A stretch of 27,930 bases of DNA. It comes from a virus (Duplodnaviria; Heunggongvirae; Uroviricota; Caudoviricetes). Below are positions 4,463 through 27,466 of this stretch, one piece after another. The first letter of the stretch is position 1; every line of letters starts with the position of its first letter. The position numbers and the translations under genes are program-made. Location: IMG/VR virus record IMGVR_UViG_3300027712_000017; one strand, 5' to 3'. Under the pieces are notes generated by a model. That model saw only the letters and a list, made by a program, of their open reading frames with translations. It was not told the DNA's origin and did not search any database.

Positions 4463-5032
4463 ATGAGTGAGCAAAAATATGGTTTCGTTTATTTGTGGTT
4501 TGACAAAAAACACAAGAGATATTATGTGGGATCCCACTGGGGTTTAGAGACTGATGGTTATGTGTGTTCTTCTTCATGGATGAAAAAATCATACAAATAT
4601 AGACCAGAAGATTTTAAAAGAAAAATCTTAAAACGAATCTATACTAATAAAATAGATTTACATGAAGAAGAACATAGATATCTTCAAATGATAAAATTGA
4701 ATGAAATTAAACCGCAAAACAACAATCCTCGTTATTATAATTTAACAATATCTGCAAAAAATCTATGGCACAAATATGATGACAAGATAAAAACTATAGG
4801 GCAGAAAATTTCCGAATCTAAAAAAGGCAAAAACACAGGTCCACGAGATCCTTCTGTTGGTGTCGCAATTTCTGCTGCTAAAAAAGGCAAACAATTCAGT
4901 GAAGAACATAAAAAGAAATTGAGTGAAGCTAAAATCGGGACAAAACAAACTGATGAACAAAAAGCTAAAAGATCTTTATCAATGTCACAACAGTGGGCTG
5001 ATGGTATCAGAACAAATAAAAAACATAAATAA
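4463..5032 (+). CDS. Free-standing GIY-YIG homing endonuclease (Seg-like) with NUMOD3-type DNA-binding repeats
   Basis: GFVY...YYVG N-terminal motif, YYN, and repeats such as KISESKKG and SEEHKKKLSEAKIG. Confidence 0.88.
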   Translation: MSEQKYGFVYLWFDKKHKRYYVGSHWGLETDGYVCSSSWMKKSYKYRPEDFKRKILKRIYTNKIDLHEEEHRYLQMIKLNEIKPQNNNPRYYNLTISAKNLWHKYDDKIKTIGQKISESKKGKNTGPRDPSVGVAISAAKKGKQFSEEHKKKLSEAKIGTKQTDEQKAKRSLSMSQQWADGIRTNKKHK

Positions 5033-5100: not shown

Positions 5101-5108
5101 TATAAATA
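5101..5108 (+). promoter_or_regulatory. T4-type late promoter
   Basis: Exact TATAAATA upstream of gp3. Confidence 0.85.
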
Positions 5109-5126: not shown

Positions 5127-5651
5127 ATGACCCAATTAGATTATATCACAGCAAATAAAAATTTCCTATCACCGCTAGGTTTCAAGTTTCAAATTAAGAA
5201 ACTTCCTAATGTGAATTTCTTTGTTCAAAGCACAAATATCCCTGGATTGTCTATAGCACAGTCACCTGAAGCACCGAACCCTTTTGTTGCTATTCCTTAT
5301 TCAGGTGATCACATACTATACAATGAATTTAAAATAACATTCAAAGTTGACGAAGATTTAAAAAATTTCCTAGAATTACATTATTGGTTGAGAGGTTTAG
5401 GTTTCCCTGAAGAATTTAATGAATATCGTCTCATTGCTGAAGAAGATAAATTAGCAGGCGGCGGCTTGAAATCTGATGCATCATTGATCATCACAACAAA
5501 TGGAAAATCTCCTAATATCGAATGTGTATTTGAAGATGCATTTCCGATAGAATTGTCTGATCTAGAGTTTAACACTACTGACGTTACTGTCGATTACATA
5601 GAAGTAACTGCGACATTCGCATACACTCAATATAAAATTAAAACCTTGTAA
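5127..5651 (+). CDS. gp3: Tail tube terminator / tail completion protein (T4 gp3)
   Basis: NFLSPLGFKF, FFVQS.NIPG, F.VDEDLKN, F.DAFP..LS; GGAG RBS before ATG 5127. Confidence 0.85.
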   Translation: MTQLDYITANKNFLSPLGFKFQIKKLPNVNFFVQSTNIPGLSIAQSPEAPNPFVAIPYSGDHILYNEFKITFKVDEDLKNFLELHYWLRGLGFPEEFNEYRLIAEEDKLAGGGLKSDASLIITTNGKSPNIECVFEDAFPIELSDLEFNTTDVTVDYIEVTATFAYTQYKIKTL

Positions 5652-5696
5652 TTTTCAAATCTTATGTTATAATGTAATTTGCTATAGCAGGAGTGA

Positions 5697-6134
5697 ATGA
5701 TGAAGATTGAAAAGATTTTTGAAGAGTGGGATGCCGATACTGACTTTGATAAAACAGAACTAGGTGACGAAGCATTAAAGGTATCTAAACTACATCACAA
5801 GTATTTTAGAATTCTATCGCAAGAACGTATTACTCGAAGATCATTAGAAGCAGATCTTAAAGTGTTGCGATTAGAGAAGTTTGAATTTTACACGCAAGGA
5901 CCATCAAAAGAAAGTGTCGAGCGTGGATGGGAAATGCCCCCTATTGGCAGAGTAGTCAAATCAGAAGTTAATAACTACATGGAAGCAGATAGAGATATAA
6001 TAAACCTATCGCTAAAAATCGGGATTCAAAATGAGAAGATTGATCTTCTAGAATCTATAATCAAGACAATACTTAGTCGTGGCTACAATATCAAAGCAGC
6101 TATTGACTGGGAGAAATTTAAAATGGGTGGATAA
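5697..6134 (+). CDS. uvsY: Recombination mediator UvsY
   Basis: EW..D, LHHKY, Y.EAD, RGYNIKAAIDW.KF..G; upstream of uvsW. Confidence 0.9.
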   Translation: MMKIEKIFEEWDADTDFDKTELGDEALKVSKLHHKYFRILSQERITRRSLEADLKVLRLEKFEFYTQGPSKESVERGWEMPPIGRVVKSEVNNYMEADRDIINLSLKIGIQNEKIDLLESIIKTILSRGYNIKAAIDWEKFKMGG

Positions 6135-7678
6135 TGAAAATTGTCAAATTTGACGAAGTATATCTTAAAATCGAATGCGAGTCAGATGTTGCATACGAAT
6201 TGCAAGAGTATTTTACATTCTTCGTTCCGGGTTATAAATTCATGCCTGCCTACAAAAACAAAATGTGGGACGGCAAAATTAGATTATTCAATCCCGCTAC
6301 ACGCTTAGTATACGCAGGAGTAATCAAACATATCGAAAATTTCTGCAAAGAGCGTGAATATGATCTTGAGATTGATGATGATTATTCAGCAAATGAGTTT
6401 TCATTATATGAAGCAAAAGAATTTGTTAAATCATTAAATCTCCCACCACATCTCGAGACACGAGATTACCAACTAGATGCGTTTGTATATTCAGTAAGAA
6501 ATAACAGATCACTTCTAGTATCACCAACCGCCTCTGGCAAATCATTCATCATTTATCTATTAACGAGGTATTTCAATGTCAAAACTCTTATTGTGGTTCC
6601 GACAACTACTCTTGTCCATCAAATGGCAAGTGACTTCAAGTCATACGGGTACCAACACCGAAACGACTATAACACTAGCAGTGAACGATCAGATCACGGA
6701 CGCAGTAACTCAAGCGCATCATCCAATGCCAACGTCAAACGAGCAACTTCAACAAGCAATGATTACGACGGAATCCACAAAATCTTCTCCGGTCAAGAAA
6801 AAGACGACCCGGAAGCCCAAATCACCGTCACAACCTGGCAAAGCATCTACAAGCAACCCAGAAAGTGGTTCGACAAATACGACCTCGTAATAGGGGACGA
6901 AGCACACTTGTTCAAAGCGAAATCGCTGGGAACTATTATGGGCAATCTAACTAGATGCAAATATCGTTTCGGTTTCACGGGAACACTTGATGGGACCGAA
7001 ACTCATAAACTTGTGCTTGAAGGATTGTTCGGTCCTGTTCGTAATGTTATCACGACTTCTGAACTTATGCAACAGAATCATGTGAGTGAATTGAAAATCA
7101 AAGCGATTGTGTTAAAACATCGTGACGAAATTCGTAAACTTATGGTAGGCAAAACATATCAAGAAGAAATGGATTACCTTGTCTCAAGTGAAGCACGCAA
7201 TCGCTTTATTAAAAATCTTACATTATCTTTGAGTGGACACACACTTGTGTTATATCAATATGTTGACAAACACGGTAAACCGTTGTATAATATGTTAAAA
7301 GATGCCAGTATACCTGTCTTTTTTGTTCATGGAGGAGTTGAAGGTGAAGAAAGAGATAAGATCAGACATATCGTTCAAGGAGAGAAAGCGAGTATCATCC
7401 TCGCGTCTTACGGAACCTTCTCGACAGGTATCAACATACCTAGTATTGAAAACGTCATATTTGCAAGTCCTTCCAAATCTAGAATCCGGAACCTTCAAAG
7501 TATCGGACGCGGACTTAGAAAATCAGATGGAAAAGATTCGGCAACACTGTATGACATTGCAGACGATCTCACCTGGAAGTCATCTAAAAACCATACTATC
7601 AACCACTTCGTTGAAAGAATAAAAATCTACAATGAAGAAAAATTTAATTACAAAATCTATAACGTGGAGTTAAAATGA
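6134..7678 (+). CDS. uvsW: SF2 DNA helicase UvsW with a ~35-40 aa low-complexity insertion
   Basis: WDGKIRL, RDYQ, SPTASGKS, DEAH, GFTGT, LQSIGRGLR. Confidence 0.95.
   Translation: MKIVKFDEVYLKIECESDVAYELQEYFTFFVPGYKFMPAYKNKMWDGKIRLFNPATRLVYAGVIKHIENFCKEREYDLEIDDDYSANEFSLYEAKEFVKSLNLPPHLETRDYQLDAFVYSVRNNRSLLVSPTASGKSFIIYLLTRYFNVKTLIVVPTTTLVHQMASDFKSYGYQHRNDYNTSSERSDHGRSNSSASSNANVKRATSTSNDYDGIHKIFSGQEKDDPEAQITVTTWQSIYKQPRKWFDKYDLVIGDEAHLFKAKSLGTIMGNLTRCKYRFGFTGTLDGTETHKLVLEGLFGPVRNVITTSELMQQNHVSELKIKAIVLKHRDEIRKLMVGKTYQEEMDYLVSSEARNRFIKNLTLSLSGHTLVLYQYVDKHGKPLYNMLKDASIPVFFVHGGVEGEERDKIRHIVQGEKASIILASYGTFSTGINIPSIENVIFASPSKSRIRNLQSIGRGLRKSDGKDSATLYDIADDLTWKSSKNHTINHFVERIKIYNEEKFNYKIYNVELK
6576..6890 (+). 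CDS. Putative overprinted gene in the +1 frame of uvsW (VNDQITDAVTQ motif, basic C-terminal part)
   Basis: 104-codon ORF with GAGGT RBS at 6565-6569; spans the uvsW insertion. Confidence 0.5.
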   Translation: MSKLLLWFRQLLLSIKWQVTSSHTGTNTETTITLAVNDQITDAVTQAHHPMPTSNEQLQQAMITTESTKSSPVKKKTTRKPKSPSQPGKASTSNPESGSTNTTS

Positions 7679-8744: not shown

Positions 8745-9806
8745 ATGAAAATTGCACTTATCACAGATACTCACTGGGGTATTCGAGGAGACGTTATTGC
8801 GTTCCATGATTACTTCAAACAGTCACTAGATGAATTTTTCTTTCCTGAACTGCGTAAGCGTGGTATTGAGAAAATTGTTCATCTAGGCGATTTAGTCGAT
8901 AGACGTAAGTTTGTTAACTATATGACAGCACATCGTCTGCGTAAAGATTTTCTCGATCCTATTGAACGAGAATTTAAGATGGATATTATCATAGGTAACC
9001 ATGACACTTATTATAAGAACACTAACGAACTTAATGCGTTGCGTGAACTCATCGTGGGTAAATATACTAAAATTGATATATTCACTAATGCCGCAACTGT
9101 ATATGAGGATGGAATTCCTATTCTGTATGTTCCGTGGATTTGTGATGAAAATAAAGAATATACCATCAATGCTATCAAAAATACTGAAGCACAAATTTGT
9201 TTCGGGCATCTTGAACTCTCGGGTTTCGAAATGTATAAAGGACACATATCCGATCATGGTCATAATCATAATATCTTTGATAAATTTGATACTGTGTGTA
9301 GTGGACATTTTCATCATAAGTCTACTTACGGTAATATTAATTACTTGGGTGCTTTTGCTGAGTTTACCTGGACTGATTACGACGATCCTCGCGGATTTCA
9401 TATCTTTGATACAGACACTCGCACATTAGAGTTTGTTCAAAATCCATTCACGATGTTTATGAAGATTCATTATGATGATTTGAATAAAACAATTGAAGAA
9501 GTTGTTCATCAAGAACTAAATACAAAGAATAAAATCATTAAAGTCATTGTTCGAAACAAAACTAATCCTTATTGGTTTGATATGTTCATTGACAAAATTG
9601 AAAATTCAAATCCATTAGAGATACAGATCATTGAAGATAGTATGCAGTTGTTTGATATGGATGCTGAGGAATCAATCAATGAAGCAGAAGATACTATCAC
9701 AATGTTTAAAAGTTATATCGGTCAGTTGGGTATCGACTCGTCAAAGCGTGACAAGTTAGAGAAAGCAATCGTTGACCTATATCAAGAGGCAATAGCAATT
9801 CAATGA
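8745..9806 (+). CDS. gp47: Recombination endonuclease subunit (T4 gp47, Mre11/SbcD-like)
   Basis: DTHWG, LGD..DRRK, GNHD, GHLE, SGHFH metallophosphoesterase motifs. Confidence 0.95.
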   Translation: MKIALITDTHWGIRGDVIAFHDYFKQSLDEFFFPELRKRGIEKIVHLGDLVDRRKFVNYMTAHRLRKDFLDPIEREFKMDIIIGNHDTYYKNTNELNALRELIVGKYTKIDIFTNAATVYEDGIPILYVPWICDENKEYTINAIKNTEAQICFGHLELSGFEMYKGHISDHGHNHNIFDKFDTVCSGHFHHKSTYGNINYLGAFAEFTWTDYDDPRGFHIFDTDTRTLEFVQNPFTMFMKIHYDDLNKTIEEVVHQELNTKNKIIKVIVRNKTNPYWFDMFIDKIENSNPLEIQIIEDSMQLFDMDAEESINEAEDTITMFKSYIGQLGIDSSKRDKLEKAIVDLYQEAIAIQ

Positions 9807-12196: not shown

Positions 12197-12655
12197 ATGG
12201 CAAAATTTATTTCTACAAAAACCTACAAACAAATCGGACCCGTTGCATATCGTCAATGGCGTGCTGATAGTCACTGCAACCTAATTCACGGTTACGCATT
12301 GTCTTTTCATTTAGAATTTGAAGCAGACACACTCGATGCTCGTAACTGGGTAGTCGACTTTGGCGGATTGAAACCGCTCAAAGGATTGCTCGAAGATTGG
12401 TTTGATCATACATTGCTCGTTGCAGTTGATGATCCGAAGCGTGATGAATTGCTACGCCTAGGTGAACTAGGACTTGCAAAAATCACTGAAGTCGAAAAGA
12501 CAGGATGTGAAGGCATTGCAGATTTCCTATACGAATACATTAACACTATTTTCTTTAAAGATTATGGTTGGGGTGATCGTGTATGGTGTTGCGGTGTTGA
12601 AGTTCGTGAAACAGACTCTAACATGGCAAAACGTGTAGGACACCGAGATGAGTAA
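12197..12655 (+). CDS. queD: 6-carboxytetrahydropterin synthase
   Basis: SHCNLIHGY, WVVDFGGLK, FDHT, EVRET. Confidence 0.9.
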   Translation: MAKFISTKTYKQIGPVAYRQWRADSHCNLIHGYALSFHLEFEADTLDARNWVVDFGGLKPLKGLLEDWFDHTLLVAVDDPKRDELLRLGELGLAKITEVEKTGCEGIADFLYEYINTIFFKDYGWGDRVWCCGVEVRETDSNMAKRVGHRDE

Positions 12656-13496
12656 AATCAAAGTAGCAGAGCTATTTTATTCACTACAAGGCGAAGGAAA
12701 ATATATCGGTGTCCCGTCAATCTTTCTCAGAACCTTTGGTTGCAATTTTACTTGTGACGGATTCGGTATGGCAAAGGGTGAAAAGAGCAAAGAACGTCTT
12801 GCAGTAGATCCCGAAAAATATGACAACTATAAGAAACTACCTTTGGTTCATACAGGTTGTGATTCTTATGCGTCATGGGATCCTAGATTCAAACATCTAT
12901 CACCCATGCTCACAGTCGAAGCAATTGTTGACGAGATGCAGAGACTATTGCCTGATGGTATGTTCGGCAGAGACAAACACCTCATCATAACGGGCGGAGA
13001 ACCGTTGCTTGGGTGGCAGAAATCCTATCCTGATCTGATTGATGAAATCATCAACAGAAGAATAGGGCTTACAGATATTACATTTGAAACTAATGGCACA
13101 CAGACACTACATCCTGACCTCTTTAATTACTTGACAAACGCTGCTCCCCATGTTAAAGTAACATGGTCGGTATCGTCAAAGTTGTCTGTGTCAGGTGAAA
13201 AATGGAACGAAGCAATCAAACCTATTACTGTTTTGAATTACATGAATGTTCCTTATAGCGATACTTATTTTAAATTTGTTGTTGCGACTGCTGATGATAT
13301 TCAGGATGTGTATAAAGCAGTTGCTGAATATAAAGAGTATGGTGTTGATGTTCCCGTTTACTTGATGCCAGTCGGCGGAACAAACGATAGCTATATAATG
13401 AATGAACGCAATGTTGCTGATTTCTGCCGTGACAACGGATTTAGATTCAGCCCTCGCATTCAAGTGCCACTTTACAAAAACGCATGGGGAACTTAA
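12648..13496 (+). CDS. queE: 7-carboxy-7-deazaguanine synthase (radical SAM)
   Basis: ELFYSLQGEG, FLRTFGCNFTC...GCDS, ITGGEP, ETNGT, FSPR. Confidence 0.92.
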   Translation: MSKIKVAELFYSLQGEGKYIGVPSIFLRTFGCNFTCDGFGMAKGEKSKERLAVDPEKYDNYKKLPLVHTGCDSYASWDPRFKHLSPMLTVEAIVDEMQRLLPDGMFGRDKHLIITGGEPLLGWQKSYPDLIDEIINRRIGLTDITFETNGTQTLHPDLFNYLTNAAPHVKVTWSVSSKLSVSGEKWNEAIKPITVLNYMNVPYSDTYFKFVVATADDIQDVYKAVAEYKEYGVDVPVYLMPVGGTNDSYIMNERNVADFCRDNGFRFSPRIQVPLYKNAWGT

Positions 13497-13501
13497 AAAA
13501 C

Positions 13502-14185
13502 ATGATTTCTGATATTATTAAAGCACGTCTTGACAACGAAAACATTCGTTATTTTGCAAACGATAATATTTCTTCATACATAAATCCTGAAGAACATGAC
13601 TTGCTTATTGATGAAGTTGCAGAAAAGTTTGAATCAGTCCTTGACAGTTTGATCATTGACCGCTATAATGATCCAAACTCTCAAGGCACAGGTAGACGTC
13701 TTGCAAAAATGTATATTAACGAGATCATGTCAGGTCGTTATGAACCACGACCTGATGTGACGGCATTCCCTAATGAGGGGGAGCAACGTTATATGGGAAT
13801 GTTGGTGGTTCGTAGTGAGATCAAATCTGTTTGCTCACATCACCATCAACCAGTGACGGGTGTCGTTTATATCGGTGTAATCCCAGGTAGTAAAATTATC
13901 GGGTTGTCGAAGTATACTCGTATTGCTCAATGGTGTGCTCGTCGTGGAACATTACAGGAAGAACTTTGCAATCATATTGCAAACGAAATTCGTTCTGCAA
14001 CTGCAACTGCTCATGTTGGTGTTTACATTGCAGCAACTCATGGATGCTGTGAGAATCGTGGTATCATGGCAAAATCTTCTTTGACACAAACAACTGTATT
14101 GCGCGGAGAATTTCAATCACCTGATGTAAAGAAAGAATTTTTCGATAACATAGCTTTGCAGGAACAATTTAGTAATGGTAGATAA
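13502..14185 (+). CDS. folE: GTP cyclohydrolase I
   Basis: SVCSHHHQP, GLSKYTR, LQEEL, HGCCENRG. Confidence 0.94.
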   Translation: MISDIIKARLDNENIRYFANDNISSYINPEEHDLLIDEVAEKFESVLDSLIIDRYNDPNSQGTGRRLAKMYINEIMSGRYEPRPDVTAFPNEGEQRYMGMLVVRSEIKSVCSHHHQPVTGVVYIGVIPGSKIIGLSKYTRIAQWCARRGTLQEELCNHIANEIRSATATAHVGVYIAATHGCCENRGIMAKSSLTQTTVLRGEFQSPDVKKEFFDNIALQEQFSNGR

Positions 14186-15530
14186 GAAAAGTTTAGATTA
14201 TGTGATCTCAGCGTGTGGTATGATGGGTGTGTTATCACCTGACCATGAAGCACCTTGGTTCCCAGTATACAAGGAGGCGACCCAATCTCTGATGGGGTCG
14301 CTTAAATCAAGAATAGCGGAGACATGTCATAATACACGACCGCTAGTTTCAACTTTGTATAACGCATATACTGAAAAGAATCATGTCCATGACTTTGAAC
14401 GACTAGATAATCTGGGTTCGGATGCTGTGTATGCAGACTCTGGCGGATTGCAAATTGTTACGGCGGGTAAAACAATCACAGAAGAAATGAAGCAACAAAT
14501 CTACAAGACACAAACTTATGCAGATTATGCGATGTGTTTTGACGTTATTCCGCTGTCATCTGTGTCATTGACTAGAACTCGTAATGAACGTTCTAACGTA
14601 GGCAATAAAGTTTTTCATTATGGAAGATTGCAAGAGTCTGCACACGCTACAGGTGATAACGTAAAGTCCCAGACAACTTATTTCAGAACACATAATGCCA
14701 AGACAAAAGCAATTATTATTGTGCAAGGTAATTCAGCAGATGACATGGTTGAATTTTTCAAAGGTGTTATATCTCGTTTGTCATCTGAGGACTATGATAA
14801 CATCGGCGGTATGGCAGTTGCAGATACTTGCATCGGCAATGGTGAACTAGAATCAATCGAGATGCTTAGAGCAGCAAAACGAATTTCAGAATTCTGTCAT
14901 CCTAACATTCGTCGGCATCTTCACGTTCTCGGTGTAGGTTCCATCAGTCGTATGCGACCTATTCTTTATCTATTGAAATCAGGTTATCTCGACAAGTTTG
15001 AGCGCGTATCTTATGACTCAAGTTCCCACACCTCGACATTCCAATATGGTTTGTTGAAGTTGAATGGGACTTGCAAATCCATAGGCTCTTACAAAACACC
15101 AGCGGTTGACAAACAGTTCAGAAGCGTGTATAATATGTTTAATGATACATTTTCTTCTTTAAATGTATCAGAAGATAATTGGATGCAGTTGTTATTTGGT
15201 GATGGCACAGGTGATTGGAAATACTCGACAATCAAACATAGAATGATGTTGCTTTCAACCGCAAATGAAATTTCAGCAGGTCTATTATGCAATGCTGCAT
15301 ATACTTACTTTCAAATTCACAATTTCGTGACCAACCTAGATAAGGTCATGGGTCATGAACTAAATAAAGTAAGATCAAATGATTTGCGTGAAATCGGTAT
15401 GAATAAACTGCTAGGTGTCACAACAGAAGATCAGATGGATGCTTGGTTGTATAACAATAGAACATTTATCAAATCTAAACGCATTAACAGAGATGAAAAC
15501 ATGATTAGTATTGAGGACTTTTTTGCATGA
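14175..15530 (+). CDS. TGT/DpdA-family 7-deazaguanine transglycosylase, probably acting on DNA
   Basis: DSGGLQ, FDVIP, IVQG, HLHVLG, YDSSS TIM-barrel motifs; no CxCxxC zinc motif of bacterial tRNA TGT; embedded in the preQ0 pathway. Confidence 0.75.
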   Translation: MVDKKSLDYVISACGMMGVLSPDHEAPWFPVYKEATQSLMGSLKSRIAETCHNTRPLVSTLYNAYTEKNHVHDFERLDNLGSDAVYADSGGLQIVTAGKTITEEMKQQIYKTQTYADYAMCFDVIPLSSVSLTRTRNERSNVGNKVFHYGRLQESAHATGDNVKSQTTYFRTHNAKTKAIIIVQGNSADDMVEFFKGVISRLSSEDYDNIGGMAVADTCIGNGELESIEMLRAAKRISEFCHPNIRRHLHVLGVGSISRMRPILYLLKSGYLDKFERVSYDSSSHTSTFQYGLLKLNGTCKSIGSYKTPAVDKQFRSVYNMFNDTFSSLNVSEDNWMQLLFGDGTGDWKYSTIKHRMMLLSTANEISAGLLCNAAYTYFQIHNFVTNLDKVMGHELNKVRSNDLREIGMNKLLGVTTEDQMDAWLYNNRTFIKSKRINRDENMISIEDFFA

Positions 15531-16468
15531 ACAAAATTGAAGAAATCGCTTTAATCGCTTCCGTTCATTTGGGTAAAGCAGGTGACGGTAGCGTAGTTAA
15601 ACCATATATTACACCGGATCAAGTTGATCCTACTTTACTTGTTGCAATTCCACGACAGTTAAATCGTGATCATTACAATATCAATCAAGATACTTTAATG
15701 GTAGGTTATGATACATGGAATGCATATGAAGTATCATTCTTGCTTGATAACGGTTATCCGATCAACGTTGTTGCAAAAATAACATATTCATCAGAATCAT
15801 ATGCTATTGTTGAATCTAAATCATTGAAGTTGTATTTAAACTCATTCAATATGCAGAAGTTTGGTAAAACACTTCATGAGGCAGCAGATGCAGCAGCAGC
15901 AAAAATCCATATTGATTTAGGTAATTTGCTTGCAACTGATGTTTGTATTGACATATTCACAGATAGTTACTTCAACGAAATTGCAGGTGAACATGCATTC
16001 AGAGGAACCTTTCCTTCTCTAGAAGAAATTACAGATGTTGAAAACATGGATTTTCCTTTTTATAATGAGAATCCTGAAATTCTTAAAATCGACCATGAAA
16101 CTGATCACAATTTGTTTACTGCAAAATCAAATGCGTTGCGGTCGAACTGTCGTGTAACTAATCAACCTGATTGGGGTGATGTCTATATTGTATTAGAAGG
16201 AGAATCAATTCCAACTTATGAATCTGTTCTTCAATACATCGTTTCAATGCGTAAAGAAAATCACTTTCATGAAGAAATTTGTGAATGTATCTACAAGCGT
16301 CTACTCGACAAGTTCAATCCAGAACACTTGATTGTTGGTTGTCTATATACTCGTCGTGGCGGTATTGACATCAATCCAGTTCGTGCAACAAGCATGGAAA
16401 TGCTACTTCGTTACTCTAAAGCCCTGATGACTCCAGGTATCCTCGTCAACAAAACAATGAGACAATAA
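15527..16468 (+). CDS. queF: Bimodular (YqcD-type) NADPH-dependent preQ0 reductase
   Basis: QueF motif VESKSLKLYLNS, catalytic RSNC..TNQPDWG, FHEEICE, YTRRGGIDINP. Confidence 0.93.
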   Translation: MNKIEEIALIASVHLGKAGDGSVVKPYITPDQVDPTLLVAIPRQLNRDHYNINQDTLMVGYDTWNAYEVSFLLDNGYPINVVAKITYSSESYAIVESKSLKLYLNSFNMQKFGKTLHEAADAAAAKIHIDLGNLLATDVCIDIFTDSYFNEIAGEHAFRGTFPSLEEITDVENMDFPFYNENPEILKIDHETDHNLFTAKSNALRSNCRVTNQPDWGDVYIVLEGESIPTYESVLQYIVSMRKENHFHEEICECIYKRLLDKFNPEHLIVGCLYTRRGGIDINPVRATSMEMLLRYSKALMTPGILVNKTMRQ

Positions 16469-16469
16469 T

Positions 16470-17213
16470 ATGAATCTTAATGATGCACTAAACGCACTTC
16501 CTACAACTAATAAAAAAGTCCTTGCCGTTCTTTCGGGCGGTTTGGATTCTTCAGTGATGACTATGATGCTAGTTCAAAAGTATGGCGCAAGCAATGTCGT
16601 TGCATTGTCATACAATTACGGACAGAAGCAGAAACTTGAATTGACGAAGGCAGCAGAGTTAACAGCAAAACTAGGTGTAGCACATAAGGTCATTGATCTA
16701 GGTATTCTAGGTGAGATCGCTAAACCTATCTCTGCAAATATCAGCGGAACAGATGTTGCGATGCCAACAATCAAGGATGTGCTAGGTGATCCTCAACCTA
16801 AGACATATGTTCCATTCCGAAATCTTATTCTGTTGTCACTAACTATGGCACAGGCGGAAGCATCTGATGCATCTCATGTGTTCACAGGACTGCAGGTGCA
16901 TGACGAGTATGGGTACTGGGATACCTCGCAGCGGTTCGTTGACTCGCTGAACGCAGTTGCAGCACAGAACAGAACTCACAAGGTCGAAATCCTTGCGCCA
17001 TTCTCGTTGCTGTCGAAGCACGAAGAAATCGAAATTTGTCGTGAAATGGGCAAACTTTCGCTTTTAGAAAACACCTTAACGTGTTATAATCCTAATGAGG
17101 TGGGTGAGTCATGCGGCAAATGCCCTTCATGCGCTGAACGTATTCAAAACTTCATGAAGTCGAAGTTGGTCGATCCCATCCCGTATCAGATTAATATTCC
17201 TTGGAAGGTATAA
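16470..17213 (+). CDS. queC: 7-cyano-7-deazaguanine synthase
   Basis: LSGGLDS, YGQ, TYVPFRN, TCY...CGKCPSC. Confidence 0.95.
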   Translation: MNLNDALNALPTTNKKVLAVLSGGLDSSVMTMMLVQKYGASNVVALSYNYGQKQKLELTKAAELTAKLGVAHKVIDLGILGEIAKPISANISGTDVAMPTIKDVLGDPQPKTYVPFRNLILLSLTMAQAEASDASHVFTGLQVHDEYGYWDTSQRFVDSLNAVAAQNRTHKVEILAPFSLLSKHEEIEICREMGKLSLLENTLTCYNPNEVGESCGKCPSCAERIQNFMKSKLVDPIPYQINIPWKV

Positions 17214-22094: not shown

Positions 22095-22304
22095 TTGAAA
22101 CAGAAGATCAAGATCGACACTCAGAAACTCCACAAGGTTGCATTCGGTATGGCAGAGATGGCGAAAGACTATCCTAACGACATGATTGCAAACAACTTAG
22201 CACGAGTGAGCGAAAAGGTAGCCGCATATGGTGCTGCGTGGAGTGAAAAACTTGACGAACTTGATATGAAAATTATTCGATTTTATTTGCAAAAAAGTGC
22301 TTGA
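22095..22304 (+). CDS. Hypothetical protein
   Basis: 69-codon ORF, TTG start with AAGGGA RBS, own promoter-like motif at 22036. Confidence 0.6.
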   Translation: MKQKIKIDTQKLHKVAFGMAEMAKDYPNDMIANNLARVSEKVAAYGAAWSEKLDELDMKIIRFYLQKSA

Positions 22305-22329
22305 CAATCGAAAAGAAATCATATATACA
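22301..22329 (+). promoter_or_regulatory. Sigma70-like promoter of the leader and tRNA array
   Basis: TTGACA-N17-TATACA. Confidence 0.65.
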
Positions 22330-22365
22330 TTAAGAACAACGAAACAAACAAAGGTTTTTGAAACA

Positions 22366-22443
22366 ATGCCGTCTTATCTTAACCAGATTGATAATATGAA
22401 AGAGGTCCGCTTTGGCGGCTTCGTTGGGGTTCTTTGTATGTGA
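22366..22443 (+). CDS. Putative attenuator leader peptide MPSYLNQIDNMKEVRFGGFVGVLCM
   Basis: 25-codon ORF between promoter and terminator; its 3' end forms the antiterminator arm. Confidence 0.6.
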   Translation: MPSYLNQIDNMKEVRFGGFVGVLCM

Positions 22444-22471
22444 CAGCACTTTGCTCACATGATCTAAGAAG

Positions 22472-22504
22472 AACCCCGGTATCCAGAAGGTCCCGGGGTT
22501 TTTT
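22472..22504 (+). terminator. Conditional Rho-independent terminator (attenuator)
   Basis: AACCCCGG ... CCGGGGTT plus TTTT; the 5' arm can alternatively pair with GGGGTTCTT at 22426-22434. Confidence 0.8.
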
Positions 22505-22592
22505 GTTGCGTTGACGAAAAAAGTGGTTGACATTATTTACCAAATAAACGATGTTGACAATGTAGGAACGAAGCGATGGCATCAATCTTCCT

Positions 22593-22605
22593 TGCTCTTT
22601 CAAAA
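22593..22605 (+). promoter_or_regulatory. rrn-type boxA antitermination element
   Basis: TGCTCTTTCAAAA versus E. coli rrn boxA TGCTCTTTAACA; just upstream of the tRNA array. Confidence 0.65.
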
Positions 22606-22652
22606 TTTAGAAACTTGTTCCTAGCGTAAGCGATGACGGAACTGGAAACAGT

Positions 22653-22748
22653 AACTCTGTTTTCACATGCATCCCGCAAATGAGGGTAGGCCTACCAACA
22701 CTTTGCTGAGATTAGTCCACTAGATGGGGTGCGTGTGTAAACAGAGTT
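22653..22748 (+). ncRNA. Unknown structured RNA closed by a ~22-bp stem
   Basis: AACTCTGTTT-T-CACATGCATCCC pairs with GGGGTGCGTGTG-T-AAACAGAGTT; internal GCAAA/TTTGC and GGTAG/CTACC stems. Confidence 0.65.
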
Positions 22749-22749
22749 T

Positions 22750-22824
22750 TGGGGAGTGGCCAAGTGGTAAGGCATCGCACTTTGAATGCGTGTACCGTAG
22801 GTTCGAATCCTACCTCCCCATCCA
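22750..22824 (+). tRNA. tRNA-Gln(TTG)
   Basis: Cloverleaf, loop CTTTGAA, GTTCGAATC, encoded CCA. Confidence 0.92.
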
Positions 22825-22828
22825 ATAT

Positions 22829-22936
22829 AACGACTAACATGTTGCAACGTGGTCAGAAATACATCAACAACTAAGATGGTTCGATTCCCAAGCTCTGGTG
22901 AGGCTCAGTTGAAGATATGATCTGTTTATAGTCGTT
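22829..22936 (+). ncRNA. Unknown T-loop-containing structured RNA
   Basis: AACGACTA/TAGTCGTT closing stem, TCAAC/GTTGA, internal GGTTCGATTCC. Confidence 0.5.
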
Positions 22937-22945
22937 CCCAATCAT

Positions 22946-23017
22946 GGCGTCTCTAAGCGGTTTAGACGGATCTCTCATAAGGATCTAGGGTGAGTTCAAC
23001 TCTCACAGACGCTACCA
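22946..23017 (+). tRNA. tRNA(CAT), Met or Ile2, with atypical shortened D-arm
   Basis: GGCGTCT/AGACGCT acceptor, loop CTCATAA, T-arm GTGAG/CTCAC, CCA. Confidence 0.75.
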
Positions 23018-23081
23018 AAAGAACGCTTGACATTATTTCGATAATATACGATAACGATTACATGATGAAAAGGAAGACGAC

Positions 23082-23240
23082 ATGATCCACACTGGAAACA
23101 TCAGCTACCTAAACAGCGTGCATCGTAAGTATGGTGTTTGGAAATACTATATGCACACACTGAAACAATGGTCGGACGGCAAATACACTGTCGAATTTAG
23201 GGAAAAAGAAGATGAAACGAAAACAGAAAGAACTTCCTAA
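23082..23240 (+). CDS. Small hypothetical protein (52 aa)
   Basis: AGGA RBS; MIHTGNISYL...ERTS; promoter-like motif at 23027. Confidence 0.5.
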   Translation: MIHTGNISYLNSVHRKYGVWKYYMHTLKQWSDGKYTVEFREKEDETKTERTS

Positions 23241-23376
23241 ACAACGCAATCCTTTCGTGGAGCATATGCGCTTCAAGGTTTGCGGTGCTCATGGGAAAAG
23301 CAAGAAGGTTCAACGCCGTGACGATAAGATGGCGCTGAAGCAAAATCACGAACCGGAGGCTACTGTTGGTTGGTAG
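23212..23376 (+). CDS. Small basic protein (54 aa, RNPF...GAHGKSKK) overlapping tRNA-Lys(TTT)
   Basis: MKRKQKELPKQRNPFVEHMRFKVCGAHGKSKKVQRRDDKMALKQNHEPEATVGW; stop codon lies inside the tRNA D-arm. Confidence 0.55.
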   Translation: MKRKQKELPKQRNPFVEHMRFKVCGAHGKSKKVQRRDDKMALKQNHEPEATVGW

Positions 23377-23438
23377 TGCCAGTCTTTTAAACTGATCCCG
23401 AAAGGGCATCGCGGGTTCAATTCCCGCCCGGTTCTCCA
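23350..23438 (+). tRNA. tRNA-Lys(TTT) with abnormal long variable arm
   Basis: GAACCGG/CCGGTTC acceptor, loop CTTTTAA, variable hairpin CCC-GAAA-GGG, T-arm GCGGG/CCCGC, T-CCA. Confidence 0.75.
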
Positions 23439-23540
23439 TTACTTTGATGATACACTGTCCGCAACAGGTCTTGATGGGGCAGCTTACGAGCAAGCCAAAG
23501 TGTAGGTGAAAGTCCTACCGCAGTGTATCTTCTAAGTAAT
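23438..23540 (+). ncRNA. Stem-enclosed RNA cassette, copy 1
   Basis: ATTACTTTGATGATACACT ... AGTGTATCTTCTAAGTAAT terminal stem; internal GTAGG-TGAAAGT-CCTAC hairpin. Confidence 0.65.
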
Positions 23541-23659
23541 AGAATTGACTGAGTTCAGTGGTTCTCGAGATAAACTGTTCCAGTTATTCGTCCGCCTGCT
23601 GTTCCCACCGTGGTAGGTCTAAAGTGACGTTAAGCATCTACAAGTTAACGGCGGGCCGT

Positions 23660-23750
23660 ATTACTTTGATGATACACTACAAGTGAGGCACATCCTTTAA
23701 ACCAAGCGGGTTTGAGTCCCGAGGCTAAAGTAGTGTATCTTCTAAGTAAT
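23660..23750 (+). ncRNA. Stem-enclosed RNA cassette, copy 2
   Basis: Same two 19-nt terminal arms as copy 1, different interior with CGGG-TTTGAGT-CCCG T-arm-like hairpin. Confidence 0.65.
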
Positions 23751-23825
23751 GCACCGGTAGTTCAGTGGTAGAACAGCGGACTCTTAATCCGCGTGTCGAG
23801 GGTTCAATCCCCTCCCGGTACACCA
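23751..23825 (+). tRNA. tRNA-Lys(CTT)
   Basis: Cloverleaf, GCGGA-CTCTTAA-TCCGC, CCA. Confidence 0.92.
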
Positions 23826-23953
23826 AAACGCGCCCTTTGACGTTGAAACAGACTAGGGTGATGGCGAATGATTCTCTCCAGTCCGGCCGGATAAACGGGA
23901 GACGTCTAAATAACCATCCGCTGCCGAACTGCGATAGTGTTCGGTGCAATTAT

Positions 23954-24028
23954 GTCTTGGTAGCTCAATGGTAGAGCGCCTGCCTGAAGAGCAGGGCGTA
24001 GGGAGTTCGATTCTCCCCCTCGACACCA
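23954..24028 (+). tRNA. tRNA-Phe(GAA)
   Basis: CCTGC-CTGAAGA-GCAGG, CCA; two acceptor mismatches. Confidence 0.88.
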
Positions 24029-24030
24029 GA

Positions 24031-24149
24031 ATTGGGTCTAGCATGGTGCTGCTGAAGAGAGTCATGACTCCGAGGCGAATGGAAAAAATATAGATTGCTG
24101 CTCATGACGCAGAATACAGTCTATAGGTTCGAAACCCCGCCCGATACCA
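24031..24149 (+). ncRNA. tRNA-like RNA (119 nt) with acceptor stem, T-loop and CCA but expanded interior
   Basis: ATTGGGT/GCCCGAT-A-CCA, GGTTCGAAACC, TAGATTG/CAGTCTA stem topped by CTGC-TCATGAC-GCAG. Confidence 0.5.
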
Positions 24150-24236
24150 ACTGTGTCAGATCCAGCTGCACATTAAAAGAATTTCTGGCTGAAATTTTCT
24201 CTTAACGCCTCTCGTAGAAGCGCAACAATAGAGTTT

Positions 24237-24311
24237 AGTCCTATAGCTCAGTGGTAGAGCAAAGAGCTGATAACTCTTAGGTCAGGTGTTCAATTCACCT
24301 TAGGACTACCA
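24237..24311 (+). tRNA. tRNA-Ile(GAT)
   Basis: AAGAG-CTGATAA-CTCTT, CCA. Confidence 0.92.
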
Positions 24312-24316
24312 AGTTT

Positions 24317-24407
24317 GGGGAGTGCAATAAGGCTAGGTGGTCCTAGCGGCAGGCTGTAACCCTGTCCCGGAAACGGCAAGAGGTTCGAATCCGTCCATTC
24401 CCCACCA
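24317..24407 (+). tRNA. tRNA-Tyr(GTA), atypical (8-bp acceptor, 6-bp D-stem with 4-nt loop)
   Basis: GGGGAGTG/CATTCCCC, GCTAGG-TGGT-CCTAGC, GCAGG-CTGTAAC-CCTGT, variable CCG-GAAA-CGG, CCA. Confidence 0.75.
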
Positions 24408-24413
24408 TAATAT

Positions 24414-24488
24414 GCGCCCATCGTCTATCGGCTAGGATAACAAACTTTCAATTTGTAGAGACGGGTTCAACTCCCGTTGGGTGTACCA
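24414..24488 (+). tRNA. tRNA-Glu(TTC)
   Basis: ACAAA-CTTTCAA-TTTGT, CCA. Confidence 0.9.
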
Positions 24489-24494
24489 ATTCAT

Positions 24495-24568
24495 ATTCTT
24501 GTCGTCTAATGTGAGGATACTATCTCGACACGATAGGGGCAATGGTTAGATTCCATTCAAGGATACCA
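24495..24568 (+). tRNA. tRNA-Val(GAC), atypical (C33, T-loop TTAGATT)
   Basis: ATTCTTG/CAAGGAT, CTATC-TCGACAC-GATAG, CCA. Confidence 0.65.
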
Positions 24569-24573
24569 ATAAT

Positions 24574-24646
24574 GCTTTCGCCGGCGGATCCGGTGGCGGG
24601 TCTACGAAGCCTGCTTACGAATGTTCGACTCATTCCGGGAGCGCCA
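24574..24646 (+). tRNA. tRNA-Arg(ACG) with shortened D-arm
   Basis: GCTTTCG/CGGGAGC, GCGGGT-CTACGAA-GCCTGC, CCA. Confidence 0.78.
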
Positions 24647-24652
24647 TAATAT

Positions 24653-24729
24653 GTTCCTTGTAGGCCAATCGGTAGAGCCTCGTGACGCGCGCCACGAAGA
24701 TGGAGGTTCGAATCCTCCCAGGGACACCA
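24653..24729 (+). tRNA. tRNA of undetermined identity (8-nt loop ACGCGCGC, no U33)
   Basis: Canonical D-loop GGTA, T-arm GGAGG-TTCGAAT-CCTCC and CCA; TCGTG/CACGA stem. Confidence 0.6.
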
Positions 24730-24734
24730 ATAAT

Positions 24735-24805
24735 GCTTCTACCGCTGGGACGGGTTAGGTCTTCTAAGCCGAAAACGGAAGGTTCGATTCCTTCTAGGAG
24801 CTCCA
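24735..24805 (+). tRNA. tRNA-Arg(TCT) with shortened D-arm
   Basis: GCTTCTA/TAGGAGC, loop CTTCTAA, GAAGG-TTCGATT-CCTTC, CCA. Confidence 0.75.
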
Positions 24806-24812
24806 ATACAAT

Positions 24813-24887
24813 GCTGGATAAGGTGTAATGGTTGCATCCCTCACTGTGACTGAGGTGGACGTGGTTCGATCCCACTATCCAGTACCA
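24813..24887 (+). tRNA. tRNA-His(GTG), A73, no encoded G-1
   Basis: CCTCA-CTGTGAC-TGAGG; GCTGGAT/ATCCAGT-A-CCA. Confidence 0.88.
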
Positions 24888-24888
24888 A

Positions 24889-25125
24889 TCAAGCTGCTAC
24901 AGATACGTCTGCGCTCTTAACAATATTTCTTACTACACCCGGTGAAATGATACGATGTCTAGGAACAGCGATGTTAGTTTTAGATTCTGGATGGTTCCAA
25001 ATATCGTGACCGCCGTGTGTTCGTTCCAGTGACCATCCACGAGTTTTCAAGTGTCTCGTTATATCTTTTTGTTTTAAATTAACATTTATTTCACGTTCGG
25101 TGATAAATTCTAAAAAGGTTAACAC
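24889..25125 (-). CDS. hicA: HicA-family RNase with T4 capsid-targeting-like N-terminus
   Basis: L..RGW...R.HGGH.IW.HP....IAVPRH..I.PG..RNI HicA pattern; GTG start with GGAG RBS; N-terminus MLTFLEFITE. Confidence 0.82.
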   Translation of the reverse strand: MLTFLEFITEREINVNLKQKDITRHLKTRGWSLERTHGGHDIWNHPESKTNIAVPRHRIISPGVVRNIVKSADVSVAA

Positions 25126-25150
25126 TTGCTTACTCCCGTTGATGTTATGT

Positions 25151-25158
25151 TATTTATA
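25151..25158 (-). promoter_or_regulatory. T4-type late promoter for hicA
   Basis: TATTTATA on + equals TATAAATA on -, 25 nt upstream of the start codon. Confidence 0.8.
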
Positions 25159-25218
25159 AATTTCAGGTGTAAGACTTATGCGCGACTTTTCGCGCACCGG
25201 AAATAAAAAATTCTTCGG

Positions 25219-25247
25219 TTGACATAAATACTAATACACTGTAATGT
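25219..25247 (+). promoter_or_regulatory. Sigma70-like promoter upstream of tRNA-Cys
   Basis: TTGACA-N17-TAATGT. Confidence 0.6.
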
Positions 25248-25254
25248 GTGTTAT

Positions 25255-25332
25255 GGTGTGGTGCTCGAGTGGCCCAAGGGAATGGATTGCAAATCCATAA
25301 AGTCGTGAGTTCGAATCTCACCCACACCTCCA
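25255..25332 (+). tRNA. tRNA-Cys(GCA)
   Basis: ATGGA-TTGCAAA-TCCAT, U73, CCA. Confidence 0.9.
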
Positions 25333-25338
25333 AACAAT

Positions 25339-25413
25339 GCTTCTATAGCTCAACGGAAGAGCGGCGGTCTTCGAAACCGTATGTTGTGGGTTCGAGTCCT
25401 GCTAGGAGCACCA
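25339..25413 (+). tRNA. tRNA-Arg(TCG)
   Basis: GCGGT-CTTCGAA-ACCGT, CCA. Confidence 0.9.
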
Positions 25414-25436
25414 AGAAACTAAAAGAAAGGCAACTC

Positions 25437-25808
25437 ATGAGAATGATCGCGGCAGCATTGCTTGCAGCGTCTTTGATGAGTTCTCCCACGACTGTGAAAG
25501 ATGCAACTTTCCATCCATCCTGCTACGCTGAAAGCGGTCGTGTAGTAACTGCGTCATGGTATAAACATGGCAAAGTGACTGCGAATGGAGAACACTTTAA
25601 CCCTGACGGGTTAACAGCAGCACATAAAAAATTACCCTTCGGTACACTTTTGTTGTTGACATATGAAGATAAATCTGTTATTGTGAGAATCAATGATAGA
25701 GGACCATTCATCAAAGGCAGAGAAATCGACCTATCAAAAGGCGCTGCTAAAGCGCTAGGTTGTATCGAAAAGGGAGTTTGCGATGTGCAGATGACCATTC
25801 TATTTTAA
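25437..25808 (+). CDS. RlpA-family (double-psi beta-barrel) lytic transglycosylase with signal peptide
   Basis: [40 protein letters not shown]; likely start at MRMIAAALL. Confidence 0.9.
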
Positions 25809-25811
25809 ATT

Positions 25812-25885
25812 GGCTCTATCGTATATAGGTATTACCTTCGGCTGTCCACCGAACGAAGGGGGTTCGAGTCCCCCTAGAGTCGCCA
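25812..25885 (+). tRNA. tRNA-Asp(GTC)
   Basis: TTCGG-CTGTCCA-CCGAA, G73, CCA. Confidence 0.9.
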
Positions 25886-25891
25886 AAATTA

Positions 25892-25956
25892 GGGATGAGT
25901 TCAGCAAAATTTTTAAGCAACAAACTTGTAATTTGTAAACGCTAAAAAATCATCCC
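25892..25956 (+). ncRNA. GTTCAGCAA hairpin element, copy 1, carrying a Thr(TGT)-like anticodon stem-loop
   Basis: GGGATGA/TCATCCC closing stem; ACAAA-CTTGTAA-TTTGT. Confidence 0.55.
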
Positions 25957-25973
25957 GTTGAACAAAAAATGTC

Positions 25974-26002
25974 TTGACATTAATAACAAAATGTCGTATA
26001 TA
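25974..26002 (+). promoter_or_regulatory. Sigma70-like promoter upstream of the initiator-like tRNA-Met
   Basis: TTGACA-N17-TATATA (TATAAT 4 nt further). Confidence 0.7.
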
Positions 26003-26026
26003 TAATACAACGATGAAAAGAATCAT

Positions 26027-26102
26027 TGCGGGGTAGAGAAGAGGCATCTCGACTGGCTCATACCCAGTAAATCGGAGGTTCGAGTCCTCCCCACCGCAAC
26101 CA
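26027..26102 (+). tRNA. tRNA-Met(CAT), initiator-like
   Basis: TGCGGGG...CCGCAACCA resembles tRNA-fMet; ACTGG-CTCATAC-CCAGT; bulged A in acceptor. Confidence 0.82.
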
Positions 26103-26111
26103 AAACAATGT

Positions 26112-26187
26112 TTCCAGTTAGCTCAGTTGGTAGAGCATCTGACTGTTAATCAGAGTGTCGCAGGTTCGAGCCCTGCACTGGGAGCCA
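26112..26187 (+). tRNA. tRNA-Asn(GTT)
   Basis: TCTGA-CTGTTAA-TCAGA, G73, CCA. Confidence 0.93.
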
Positions 26188-26204
26188 AATATCAAAGGTG
26201 CTGA

Positions 26205-26486
26205 ATGGGTAAATATTTCTCAAGAGTGTTTATCGCATTCAGTATCCTTATGAACGCTCTTGTCGGCGGTAAGAACAATCAAACTCTTAGCGCAGGACAA
26301 TGGCAGCGTAAACGAAAGAAGAAATGGAACTTTGTCAAAATGATTGACGCATTTTTCTGGTGGGAAAAAGATCACTGTGAAGATGCGTGGATCAAATGGC
26401 AAATCATTAACTATGCTATCAATCAATATGATGGTATTGCTGAACACTATTACAGCGGTATCAAGAAGAAGAAAAAGAAGAAATAA
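26205..26486 (+). CDS. Hypothetical protein (N..GG..NQTLSA, ID..F....HC) with poly-Lys tail
   Basis: 93-codon ORF with AAGGT RBS between tRNAs. Confidence 0.7.
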   Translation: MGKYFSRVFIAFSILMNALVGGKNNQTLSAGQWQRKRKKKWNFVKMIDAFFWWEKDHCEDAWIKWQIINYAINQYDGIAEHYYSGIKKKKKKK

Positions 26487-26487
26487 T

Positions 26488-26562
26488 CAGGGTGTAGCTC
26501 AGTGGTAGAGTGCTTCACTTGGAATGAAGAAGCCGCAAGTTCAATCCTTGTCACCCTGACCA
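26488..26562 (+). tRNA. tRNA-Pro(TGG)
   Basis: CAGGGTG/CACCCTG, CTTCA-CTTGGAA-TGAAG, CCA. Confidence 0.92.
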
Positions 26563-26568
26563 AAATTT

Positions 26569-26630
26569 AGGATCGGTTCAGCAAACAAAAACGCTAAATC
26601 AATGGATGTCTTAGCGGACAAAACGATCCT
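26569..26630 (+). ncRNA. GTTCAGCAA hairpin element, copy 2
   Basis: AGGATCG/CGATCCT closing stem, GTTCAGCAAA, inner CGCTAA/TTAGCG stem. Confidence 0.55.
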
Positions 26631-26632
26631 GT

Positions 26633-26640
26633 TATAAATA
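26633..26640 (+). promoter_or_regulatory. T4-type late promoter (tRNA-Ala, tRNA-Ser, PAAR)
   Basis: Exact TATAAATA. Confidence 0.75.
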
Positions 26641-26649
26641 AAAGACAAT

Positions 26650-26725
26650 GGGGAATTAGCTCATCTGGGAGAGCGATTGCTTTGCAAGCAATAGGTGATC
26701 GGTTCGAGGCCGATATTCTCCACCA
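26650..26725 (+). tRNA. tRNA-Ala(TGC)
   Basis: G3:U70, ATTGC-TTTGCAA-GCAAT, CCA. Confidence 0.93.
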
Positions 26726-26731
26726 AAATAC

Positions 26732-26819
26732 GGAGGGCTGGGCGAGTGGTTTATGCCTGCAGTCTTGAAAACTGCCGGACCGCAAGGTCCCGTGAGTTCG
26801 AATCTCACGCCCTCCGCCA
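26732..26819 (+). tRNA. tRNA-Ser(TGA)
   Basis: GCAGT-CTTGAAA-ACTGC, long variable arm, G73, CCA. Confidence 0.93.
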
Positions 26820-26834
26820 TATAAGGAATAAGAA

Positions 26835-27134
26835 ATGCCAGTGGTAGCGGTTGAAGGATCAGGTGTTGCAACAGGCCATCCATGTGATGGCGCAACGACA
26901 CTTGACACCCCATCACAAAGCAAAGTATTTGCAGGCGGCAAATTAGTCGCTTGTTTAGGCGATCCGACAGTTGTTCATCAGATTCTTGTTGGTATTCCTT
27001 GTGTTCCACATACTGCTTCAATAGGTGGTAGTTCATCTACGGTATTCATTGGCGGCATAGGTGTCGCAAGAGTATCAGATGCGTGTGACGCAGGTAGTAT
27101 CACATCAGGTGAGTCAACTGTTACAGTAGGTTAA
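26835..27134 (+). CDS. PAAR-domain tail spike tip protein (T4 gp5.4-like)
   Basis: GH.C, VF.GG..VA..GD...H, H...I..SSSTVFIGG..VARV.D..D.G.I..GE..V..G. Confidence 0.88.
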   Translation: MPVVAVEGSGVATGHPCDGATTLDTPSQSKVFAGGKLVACLGDPTVVHQILVGIPCVPHTASIGGSSSTVFIGGIGVARVSDACDAGSITSGESTVTVG

Positions 27135-27136
27135 AT

Positions 27137-27211: not shown

Positions 27212-27213
27212 AT

Positions 27214-27287: not shown

Positions 27288-27293
27288 AATTAT

Positions 27294-27368: not shown

Positions 27369-27374
27369 GATAAT

Positions 27375-27450: not shown

Positions 27451-27466
27451 ATAATACATTAACTAT

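Follow-up and report, generated by a model that had tools for sequence, protein, structure and literature searches.

Genes nested in a second frame of a longer gene on the same strand are a known kind of phage gene, exemplified by E in D and K of phiX174, Rz1 in Rz of lambda, and 30.3' of T4. The E and K products of phiX174 are de novo overprinted proteins (PMC8227390). The gene described here, which lies in the +1 frame of the helicase gene uvsW, has in common with the known cases a shifted frame, an internal ribosome-binding site of its own, and a small product, as well as reduced synonymous variation and disorder in one of the two frames (PMC8227390). It differs from them because its host is a conserved SF2 helicase core, because the nested protein has pushed an insertion of variable length (0-60 aa) into the host protein, and because amphipathic and transmembrane variants occur at one and the same start site. 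Two further systems bear on the product. The first is the Reb family of R-body proteins, whose diagnostic motif is QITD (PMC13430693). The nested product shares the 11-residue N-terminal QITD signature of Reb; in contrast to RebB (PF11747), however, the motif is internal, the gene is present as a single copy without a reb cluster, and the protein is basic and not acidic. The second is Noc of Bacillus subtilis, which recruits DNA to the membrane through an N-terminal amphipathic helix and DNA binding (PMC4331003). Both proteins would combine DNA binding with an amphipathic helix at the N-terminus and a variable spacer, but the likeness is one of functional analogy and no homology is claimed: Noc is a folded, sequence-specific member of the ParB family, whereas the nested protein has only a disordered basic tail. 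Our search of the literature, which covered few subscription papers, turned up neither a gene nested in uvsW nor this class of microproteins, and the motif was not found described in phage proteins or elsewhere outside Reb proteins.

The window, that is, the whole stretch of 27,930 nucleotides that was analysed, has a T4-like gene order consisting of head protease, scaffold, major head protein, homing endonuclease, a tail-tube-like gene, uvsY, uvsW, a late sigma factor, and a recombination nuclease pair, and also carries 7-deazaguanine pathway and clamp/clamp-loader genes. The homing endonuclease (4463-5032) is free-standing, of the GIY-YIG/NUMOD3 type, and follows the major head gene; in one relative (L318) a gp23-like fragment occupies its position. 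On the plus strand, uvsW (6134-7678) encodes in the ancestral frame a T4-type SF2 helicase of 514 aa with the Pfam domains UvsW_N, ResIII, and Helicase_C, which matches the T4 structure PDB 2OCA with an E value of 5e-86 (phmmer). No UvsW of a cultured phage exceeds 52% identity to that of the window, and near relatives are found on metagenomic contigs of up to 157 kb. A putative T4 late promoter, TATAAATA (5101-5108, plus strand), lies upstream of the run of tail-tube-like gene, uvsY, and uvsW, and a candidate sigma70-like promoter with an extended -10 element (5646-5673, plus strand), identified by its match to the consensus, precedes uvsY. No plus-strand terminators were found between 5600 and 7000. 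Late transcription of the nested gene from the site at 5101, by read-through, is thus possible.

The nested gene (6576-6890, plus strand) starts with ATG and encodes 104 aa, arranged as an N-terminal helix, a linker rich in S, T, P, and Q, the QITD motif, and a lysine-rich tail. Its Shine-Dalgarno sequence, GAGGT (6565-6569), is located 6 nt before the ATG and is formed by the uvsW codons ACG-AGG-TAT for Thr144-Arg145-Tyr146. A TAA at 6561-6563 shuts the +1 frame four codons upstream of the start, and the ORF ends in a double stop (TAA TAG) just ahead of the uvsW DEAH motif. The initial annotation of this DNA had pointed out the 104-codon ORF with its GAGGT and ATG, which are present in the window as described, and all three peptide stretches that it quoted occur in the translation. 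The open +1 frame by itself is modestly unexpected in the window genome (P = 0.011 in synonymous re-sampling), and the window contains further +1 stretches of similar length (100-144 codons), one of them inside uvsW (7302-7622). Because of this modest P value and these comparable stretches nearby, the case for a gene rests on conservation and not on length.

Conservation was assessed in 182 distinct uvsW cores. Where a Shine-Dalgarno sequence and a start codon occur at the homologous site, the +1 frame is free of stops over the core in 64 of 67 genes, as compared to 1 of 114 genes without the site; the three exceptions contain shorter ORFs, two of 78 codons and one of 56. The association persists after dereplication at 75% nucleotide identity (34/35 open with the site versus 1/47 without) and among loci that were retrieved by a UvsW protein search alone (30/31 with site and start versus 1/80 without). 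In the 64 ORF-bearing genes, three stops were observed where synonymous re-sampling predicts about 178, and the shortage does not extend beyond UvsW residues 149-228. Of the 52 ORF-bearing representatives, 47 use AGG for the arginine codon that forms the Shine-Dalgarno sequence, although AGG accounts for 9% of the arginine codons elsewhere in those genes, and only 3 of 80 control representatives have AGG there. All 52 ORF-bearing representatives have an ATG or GTG 3-9 nt past the site. Some ORF-less relatives have kept the Thr-Arg-Tyr residues but encode them with codons that do not form a Shine-Dalgarno sequence. The same DNA pattern of Shine-Dalgarno sequence and ATG opens ordinary genes elsewhere in phage contigs. 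In a uvsW tree that was built without the overlap region and whose backbone is poorly resolved, carriers are scattered among non-carriers; in six contrasts with supports of 0.87-0.98 the site, the start, and the open frame were lost jointly, while two of the eight contrasts are unsupported. The nested ORF is absent from 80 of 132 uvsW representatives and thus has a narrower spread than uvsW, and tblastn and blastn searches of cultured phages retrieved no carrier. Conservation of the flanks of the nested protein is not independent evidence, because most flank residues are partly dictated by conserved UvsW residues. As judged from these comparisons, which show the three elements being kept or lost together, selection preserves the site, the start codon, and the stop-free frame jointly. 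The +1 gene is very probably real and translated, and we are nearly as confident of the gene together with the anatomy described below, leaving aside what the product does.

The nested products fall into two classes. Class A, to which the window belongs, comprises proteins of 66-110 aa with an amphipathic start, a hydrophilic linker, and a basic tail, and includes members without an insert in the helicase. Class B (L009, L087-L152, L166-L286), which is the commoner class in our sample, comprises mostly proteins of 67-76 aa with a long hydrophobic N-terminus, which begin at the same start site and are encoded in uvsW genes without a loop insert. The Kyte-Doolittle maximum over 19 residues is 2.2-3.1 in class B but 0.74 in the window ORF, which has no transmembrane segment; the difference between the classes is partly by construction, because the labels were set by a hydrophobicity threshold. 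Class B is a candidate small membrane protein. Synonymous differences in uvsW, whose comparison over the overlap had been proposed at the outset, are more than halved there in class A (0.129 inside versus 0.302 outside, lower inside in 10 of 10 pairs); the corresponding values are 0.254 versus 0.363 in class B and 0.340 versus 0.368 in the controls. The T-poverty that the initial annotation had taken as a mark of dual coding is found in the window, where the T content of the overlap is 0.18 versus 0.28 overall and that of uvsW third positions 0.19 versus 0.32. However, it is not a general mark, as the transmembrane variant is rich in T at third positions (0.53 versus 0.38). Across the sample, third-position T is lowered in class A (0.20) and raised in class B (0.53) but not shifted in the controls (0.37), as selection on the composition of the +1 protein would predict.

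UvsW of the window carries a disordered insert between Walker A and DEAH, in the interval between motifs Ia and II (6653-6769, plus strand, residues ~174-212). An insertion of ~35-40 aa had been noticed from the sequence, and it is borne out by alignment with T4 UvsW (PDB 2OCA), which has 6 residues where the window protein has 41 (about 35 extra), and by an AlphaFold pLDDT below 50 at residues 178-211. In six close pairs, substitutions in the insert are distributed over uvsW codon positions 1, 2, and 3 as 25/22/13, as compared to 129/50/431 in the remaining gene (P 9e-8), and uvsW codon position 1 is the wobble position of the +1 frame. Across clades, the +1 frame retains the 11-residue motif although the residues encoded there in the uvsW frame differ, and among 98 insert-bearing UvsW proteins drawn from a protein database 39 contain the exact amino-acid shadow of +1 QITD[AS]VT (shuffles: mean 0.05, maximum 3). 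Selection within the insert, read from these substitution patterns, thus acts on the +1 protein. Because the substitutions fall at the +1 wobble position, the insert is best described as a disordered loop that the helicase retains for the sake of the nested product, in other words as the linker of the nested protein expanded into a tolerant loop of the helicase. Relatives that keep the insert beside an interrupted +1 frame, had been named at the outset as evidence against this idea; loops of at least 15 aa are confined to ORF-bearing uvsW genes. The converse does not hold: insert-free relatives keep a version of 66-70 codons at the same start site, in many cases encoding the transmembrane variant, so the nested gene is independent of the insert, and the initial proposal that the insert is maintained for the +1 product stands with this qualification. 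An intein or intron was rejected as an explanation, as the insert is in-frame, 39 codons long, and of low complexity, matches no intein family in Pfam, and gives no folding signal (z -0.31). RNA structure was found neither at the start site (z 0.66) nor in the overlap (the same z of -0.31), and no DNA repeats were found in the overlap. An apparent insert of UvsW is thus a feature selected in another frame, by which a nested gene reshapes a conserved helicase, and the length variation of UvsW in these phages would be misread unless the nested gene is considered. With gains, losses, two forms of anchor, and linker expansion at one start site, the locus also offers a natural series for studying de novo gene evolution.

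The N-terminal 21 residues of the product (6576-6638, plus strand) are a predicted amphipathic helix that may serve as a membrane anchor. AlphaFold models residues 2-21 as the one helix (pLDDT 67-79) of an otherwise disordered chain and gives disorder after residue 45; the hydrophobic moment of the helix is moderate (0.50, with a class A mean of 0.65) and the net charge is +5. The core of the basic tail reads KKKTTRKPK (6795-6821, plus strand). Domain searches with the product gave no match to ParB/HTH or any other domain. From this anatomy, the following scheme can be proposed. Ribosomes would start at the internal GAGGT-N6-ATG of a uvsY-uvsW message, transcribed from the sigma70-like site (5646-5673) or the late promoter at 5101, and would produce the 104-aa protein, while in UvsW the residues added in frame would be tolerated in a disordered loop that separates motifs Ia and II. 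The product would be a disordered microprotein composed of an N-terminal membrane anchor, a variable linker, and a polybasic tail; in the window's class the anchor would be an amphipathic helix, and in the insert-free class it would span the membrane as a helix. The helix may attach to the membrane and the basic tail may bind a polyanion, so that, going by composition, both membrane and DNA binding are conceivable; the linker optionally carries VNxQITDxVTQ, which might act as an added binding site for a partner. By analogy with Noc, the likeliest function would be that of a small membrane-surface tether, keeping DNA, or some other polyanion, on the inner membrane of the infected cell, but we put this forward tentatively and with less than even confidence.

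Searches of Pfam, PHROGs, and the ESM Atlas with the ORF gave nothing significant; unnamed viral clusters in the ESM Atlas that score 0.78-0.83 can serve only as leads. A profile search of 1.8 billion representatives retrieved three significant proteins, and the two that were looked up are the same nested ORF in uvsW DNA. Because gene callers miss such genes, protein databases contain next to no members of the family. Among the low-scoring matches was a large set of standalone phage microproteins of like layout (P0127, P0140, P0167, P0197, P0211, and others), with an N-terminal amphipathic or transmembrane helix, a P/A/T/V-rich linker containing VNxQITDxVTQ, and a lysine-rich tail. These share the three-part design of the nested protein but are encoded by free-standing genes, and no Pfam family was found for the two that were tested. 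The window ORF reaches 43 bits against a profile made from 43 standalone microproteins, as compared to 20 bits with the Reb profile, although the former score is partly circular because its profile derives from matches to a motif-bearing query. Three of four standalone members examined (L564-L567) lie tail-to-tail with uvdE on the opposite strand, and amphipathic and transmembrane forms share one syntenic site by uvdE on three contigs. The pairing resembles that of classes A and B and points to a membrane-anchoring role for the N-terminus. The closest relatives of the nested product thus appear to be these unnamed microproteins, by either common descent or convergence. A second, independent nested family of like design is present in large phages, where a cytidylyltransferase-like/zeta-kinase gene carries it in the +1 frame (L437:853-3039, minus strand; L568-L630). 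A +1 ORF is present in 44 of 46 distinct loci, with the host frame open in all 44 and no ORF in the +2 frame; the ORFs have a Shine-Dalgarno sequence and encode products of 60-99 aa with an amphipathic N-terminus and a basic tail, and one of the 44 contains the QITD motif.

The motif of the window, VNDQITDAVTQ (6681-6713, plus strand; product residues 36-46), is conserved in the +1 frame. The initial annotation had named VNxQITDxVTQ as the N-terminal motif of RebB and R-body proteins, and it is indeed a true Reb signature (PMC13430693), but the product is not a RebB. None of 21 class A proteins matches Pfam RebB at E<=1, where a control RebB (P0239) scores 82.8 bits, and the Reb profile aligns with residues 32-47 of the window ORF only (20 bits), although RebB proteins do turn up among the weak matches of the ORF. 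The prolines flanking QITD and the KxxxD/E pattern were not found in the window ORF; among 178 Reb-like controls, for whose selection the downstream proline was used, the upstream proline is present in 137 and KxxxD/E in 150. Of the domain-3 motifs NAV and QQ(Q), which belong to a long helix in Reb proteins, NAV is absent as well, and a QQ is present but lies in a region modelled as coil. Clustered reb paralogs were not found, and the six frames of the window contain a single copy of the motif. Identification as a RebB or R-body protein was thus rejected, as only the signature motif is shared while domain, flanking-motif, and cluster features fail. Nor does the motif make the product an R-body protein, because it occurs in many unrelated phage proteins. 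A back-translated search of viral contigs found it in at least 110 phage proteins, and its synonymous sites vary freely among the matches listed; the motif is therefore a protein-level feature and no DNA repeat. Among the matches listed, VN[DPS]QITD[AS]VT[QT] recurs as a portable linear motif in linkers and tails of unrelated phage proteins (L321-L437), which were recognized from their sequences as endolysins, single-strand binding proteins, RecT, DnaK, scaffolding proteins, and lipoproteins, and also in many small standalone proteins. It is situated in apparently disordered parts. A few non-Reb cellular proteins carry it, too (L479, L485, L488, L556). A widespread and apparently undescribed linear motif common to phage proteins and R-body subunits has thus come to light. 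A broader and rather doubtful extension would be that aquatic T4-like phages repeatedly use the +1 frame of core genes to hide a single undescribed class of microproteins, composed of membrane anchor, disordered linker, and lysine tail, which drive insertions in the host enzymes, and that some of them carry the R-body-shared motif as an address tag or decoy that is read by a host factor and is common to dozens of unrelated phage proteins.

By mimicking the Reb N-terminus or serving as its decoy, the motif itself might do the work and bind a host factor whose normal targets are Reb proteins, while anchor and tail would only position it. We consider this unlikely, but several features of the motif are in its favor. 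Besides being the Reb signature (PMC13430693) that is conserved at the protein level in these phage proteins, it is narrow even at its unconstrained positions (D/P/S in 105 and Q in 81 of the 110 matches listed); several standalone carriers retain a Reb-like FPTA/FPTS prefix, and exactly one strict copy is present in each of 11 phage records with a match. However, the motif is found in only 10 of 22 class A products and in no class B product, is almost missing from the second nested family (43 of 44 lack it), and was deleted in a close relative (L317), so it is dispensable. Its presence in periplasmic lipoproteins and in the tails of cytoplasmic SSB, RecT, and DnaK ill fits a single host partner, and the literature search found no link of Reb to phage defence through the motif. 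Compensation of motif-free nested genes by a standalone motif gene was also considered but gained no support, as no strict match was found in the uvsW-linked records tested, several of which are incomplete.

The tether is also to be weighed against a role in lysis or membrane damage, which is similarly improbable and would best fit the insert-free transmembrane class. The gene E of phiX174 likewise is nested in the +1 frame of its host gene, D. Class B resembles a lysis protein in its long hydrophobic N-terminus, selected T enrichment at third positions, and subsequent basic segment; the putative late promoter upstream is in line with this function, and 2 of 37 proteins gave weak, sub-threshold matches to holin families. 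Still, the window's class has no transmembrane segment, and likeness to E is expected by convergence because any +1 frame rich in T at third positions yields leucine-rich stretches. Less probable again is a packaged internal or DNA-condensing virion protein, comparable to the internal proteins of T4, for which the small size, basic charge, disorder, and possible late promoter would be suitable. Packaging would not readily explain why a transmembrane variant begins at the same start, and the N-terminus of the product presumably has no T4-type capsid-targeting leader.

The two readings that dispense with a separate gene are contradicted by the data and are very improbable. An internal Shine-Dalgarno sequence can stimulate frameshifting, as in prfB, and in most relatives the open frame terminates at about the same position, as if it were the tail of a truncated helicase made by programmed +1 frameshifting, but the start codon that follows the site in every ORF-bearing representative would be superfluous for a shift, the +1 frame is closed four codons upstream, and the RNA at the site is unstructured. 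Equally remote is that no protein is made and the open frame mirrors the sequence and codon usage of UvsW, or else some RNA or DNA element within the insert. Chance does produce long +1 stretches in the window genome, and an 83-86-codon shadow stretch recurs in gp47 homologs, but only 1 of 80 relatives without the site has an open frame, the ORF-less Thr-Arg-Tyr relatives use other codons, and neither RNA structure nor repeats were found.

The second +1 ORF of uvsW (7302-7622, 106 aa), which served as the negative control, is attributed to chance, as it has no Shine-Dalgarno sequence and is open in 2 of 132 relatives. In gp47, the +1 frame contains an ORF of 142 codons (9001-9429) whose product has a hydrophobic C-terminus. 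A part of 83-86 codons is open in about a third of 137 homologs, but the ORF has no clear Shine-Dalgarno sequence and has lost its start in close relatives; it is probably a codon shadow. Elsewhere, the region 12197-17213 contains QueD, QueE, two GTP cyclohydrolase-like genes, QueC, and a 451-aa gene without an assigned role, and represents a 7-deazaguanine cluster, possibly with a role in DNA modification. The region 22100-27930 is gene-poor and contains short ORFs only, on both strands, together with two TATAAATA sites.
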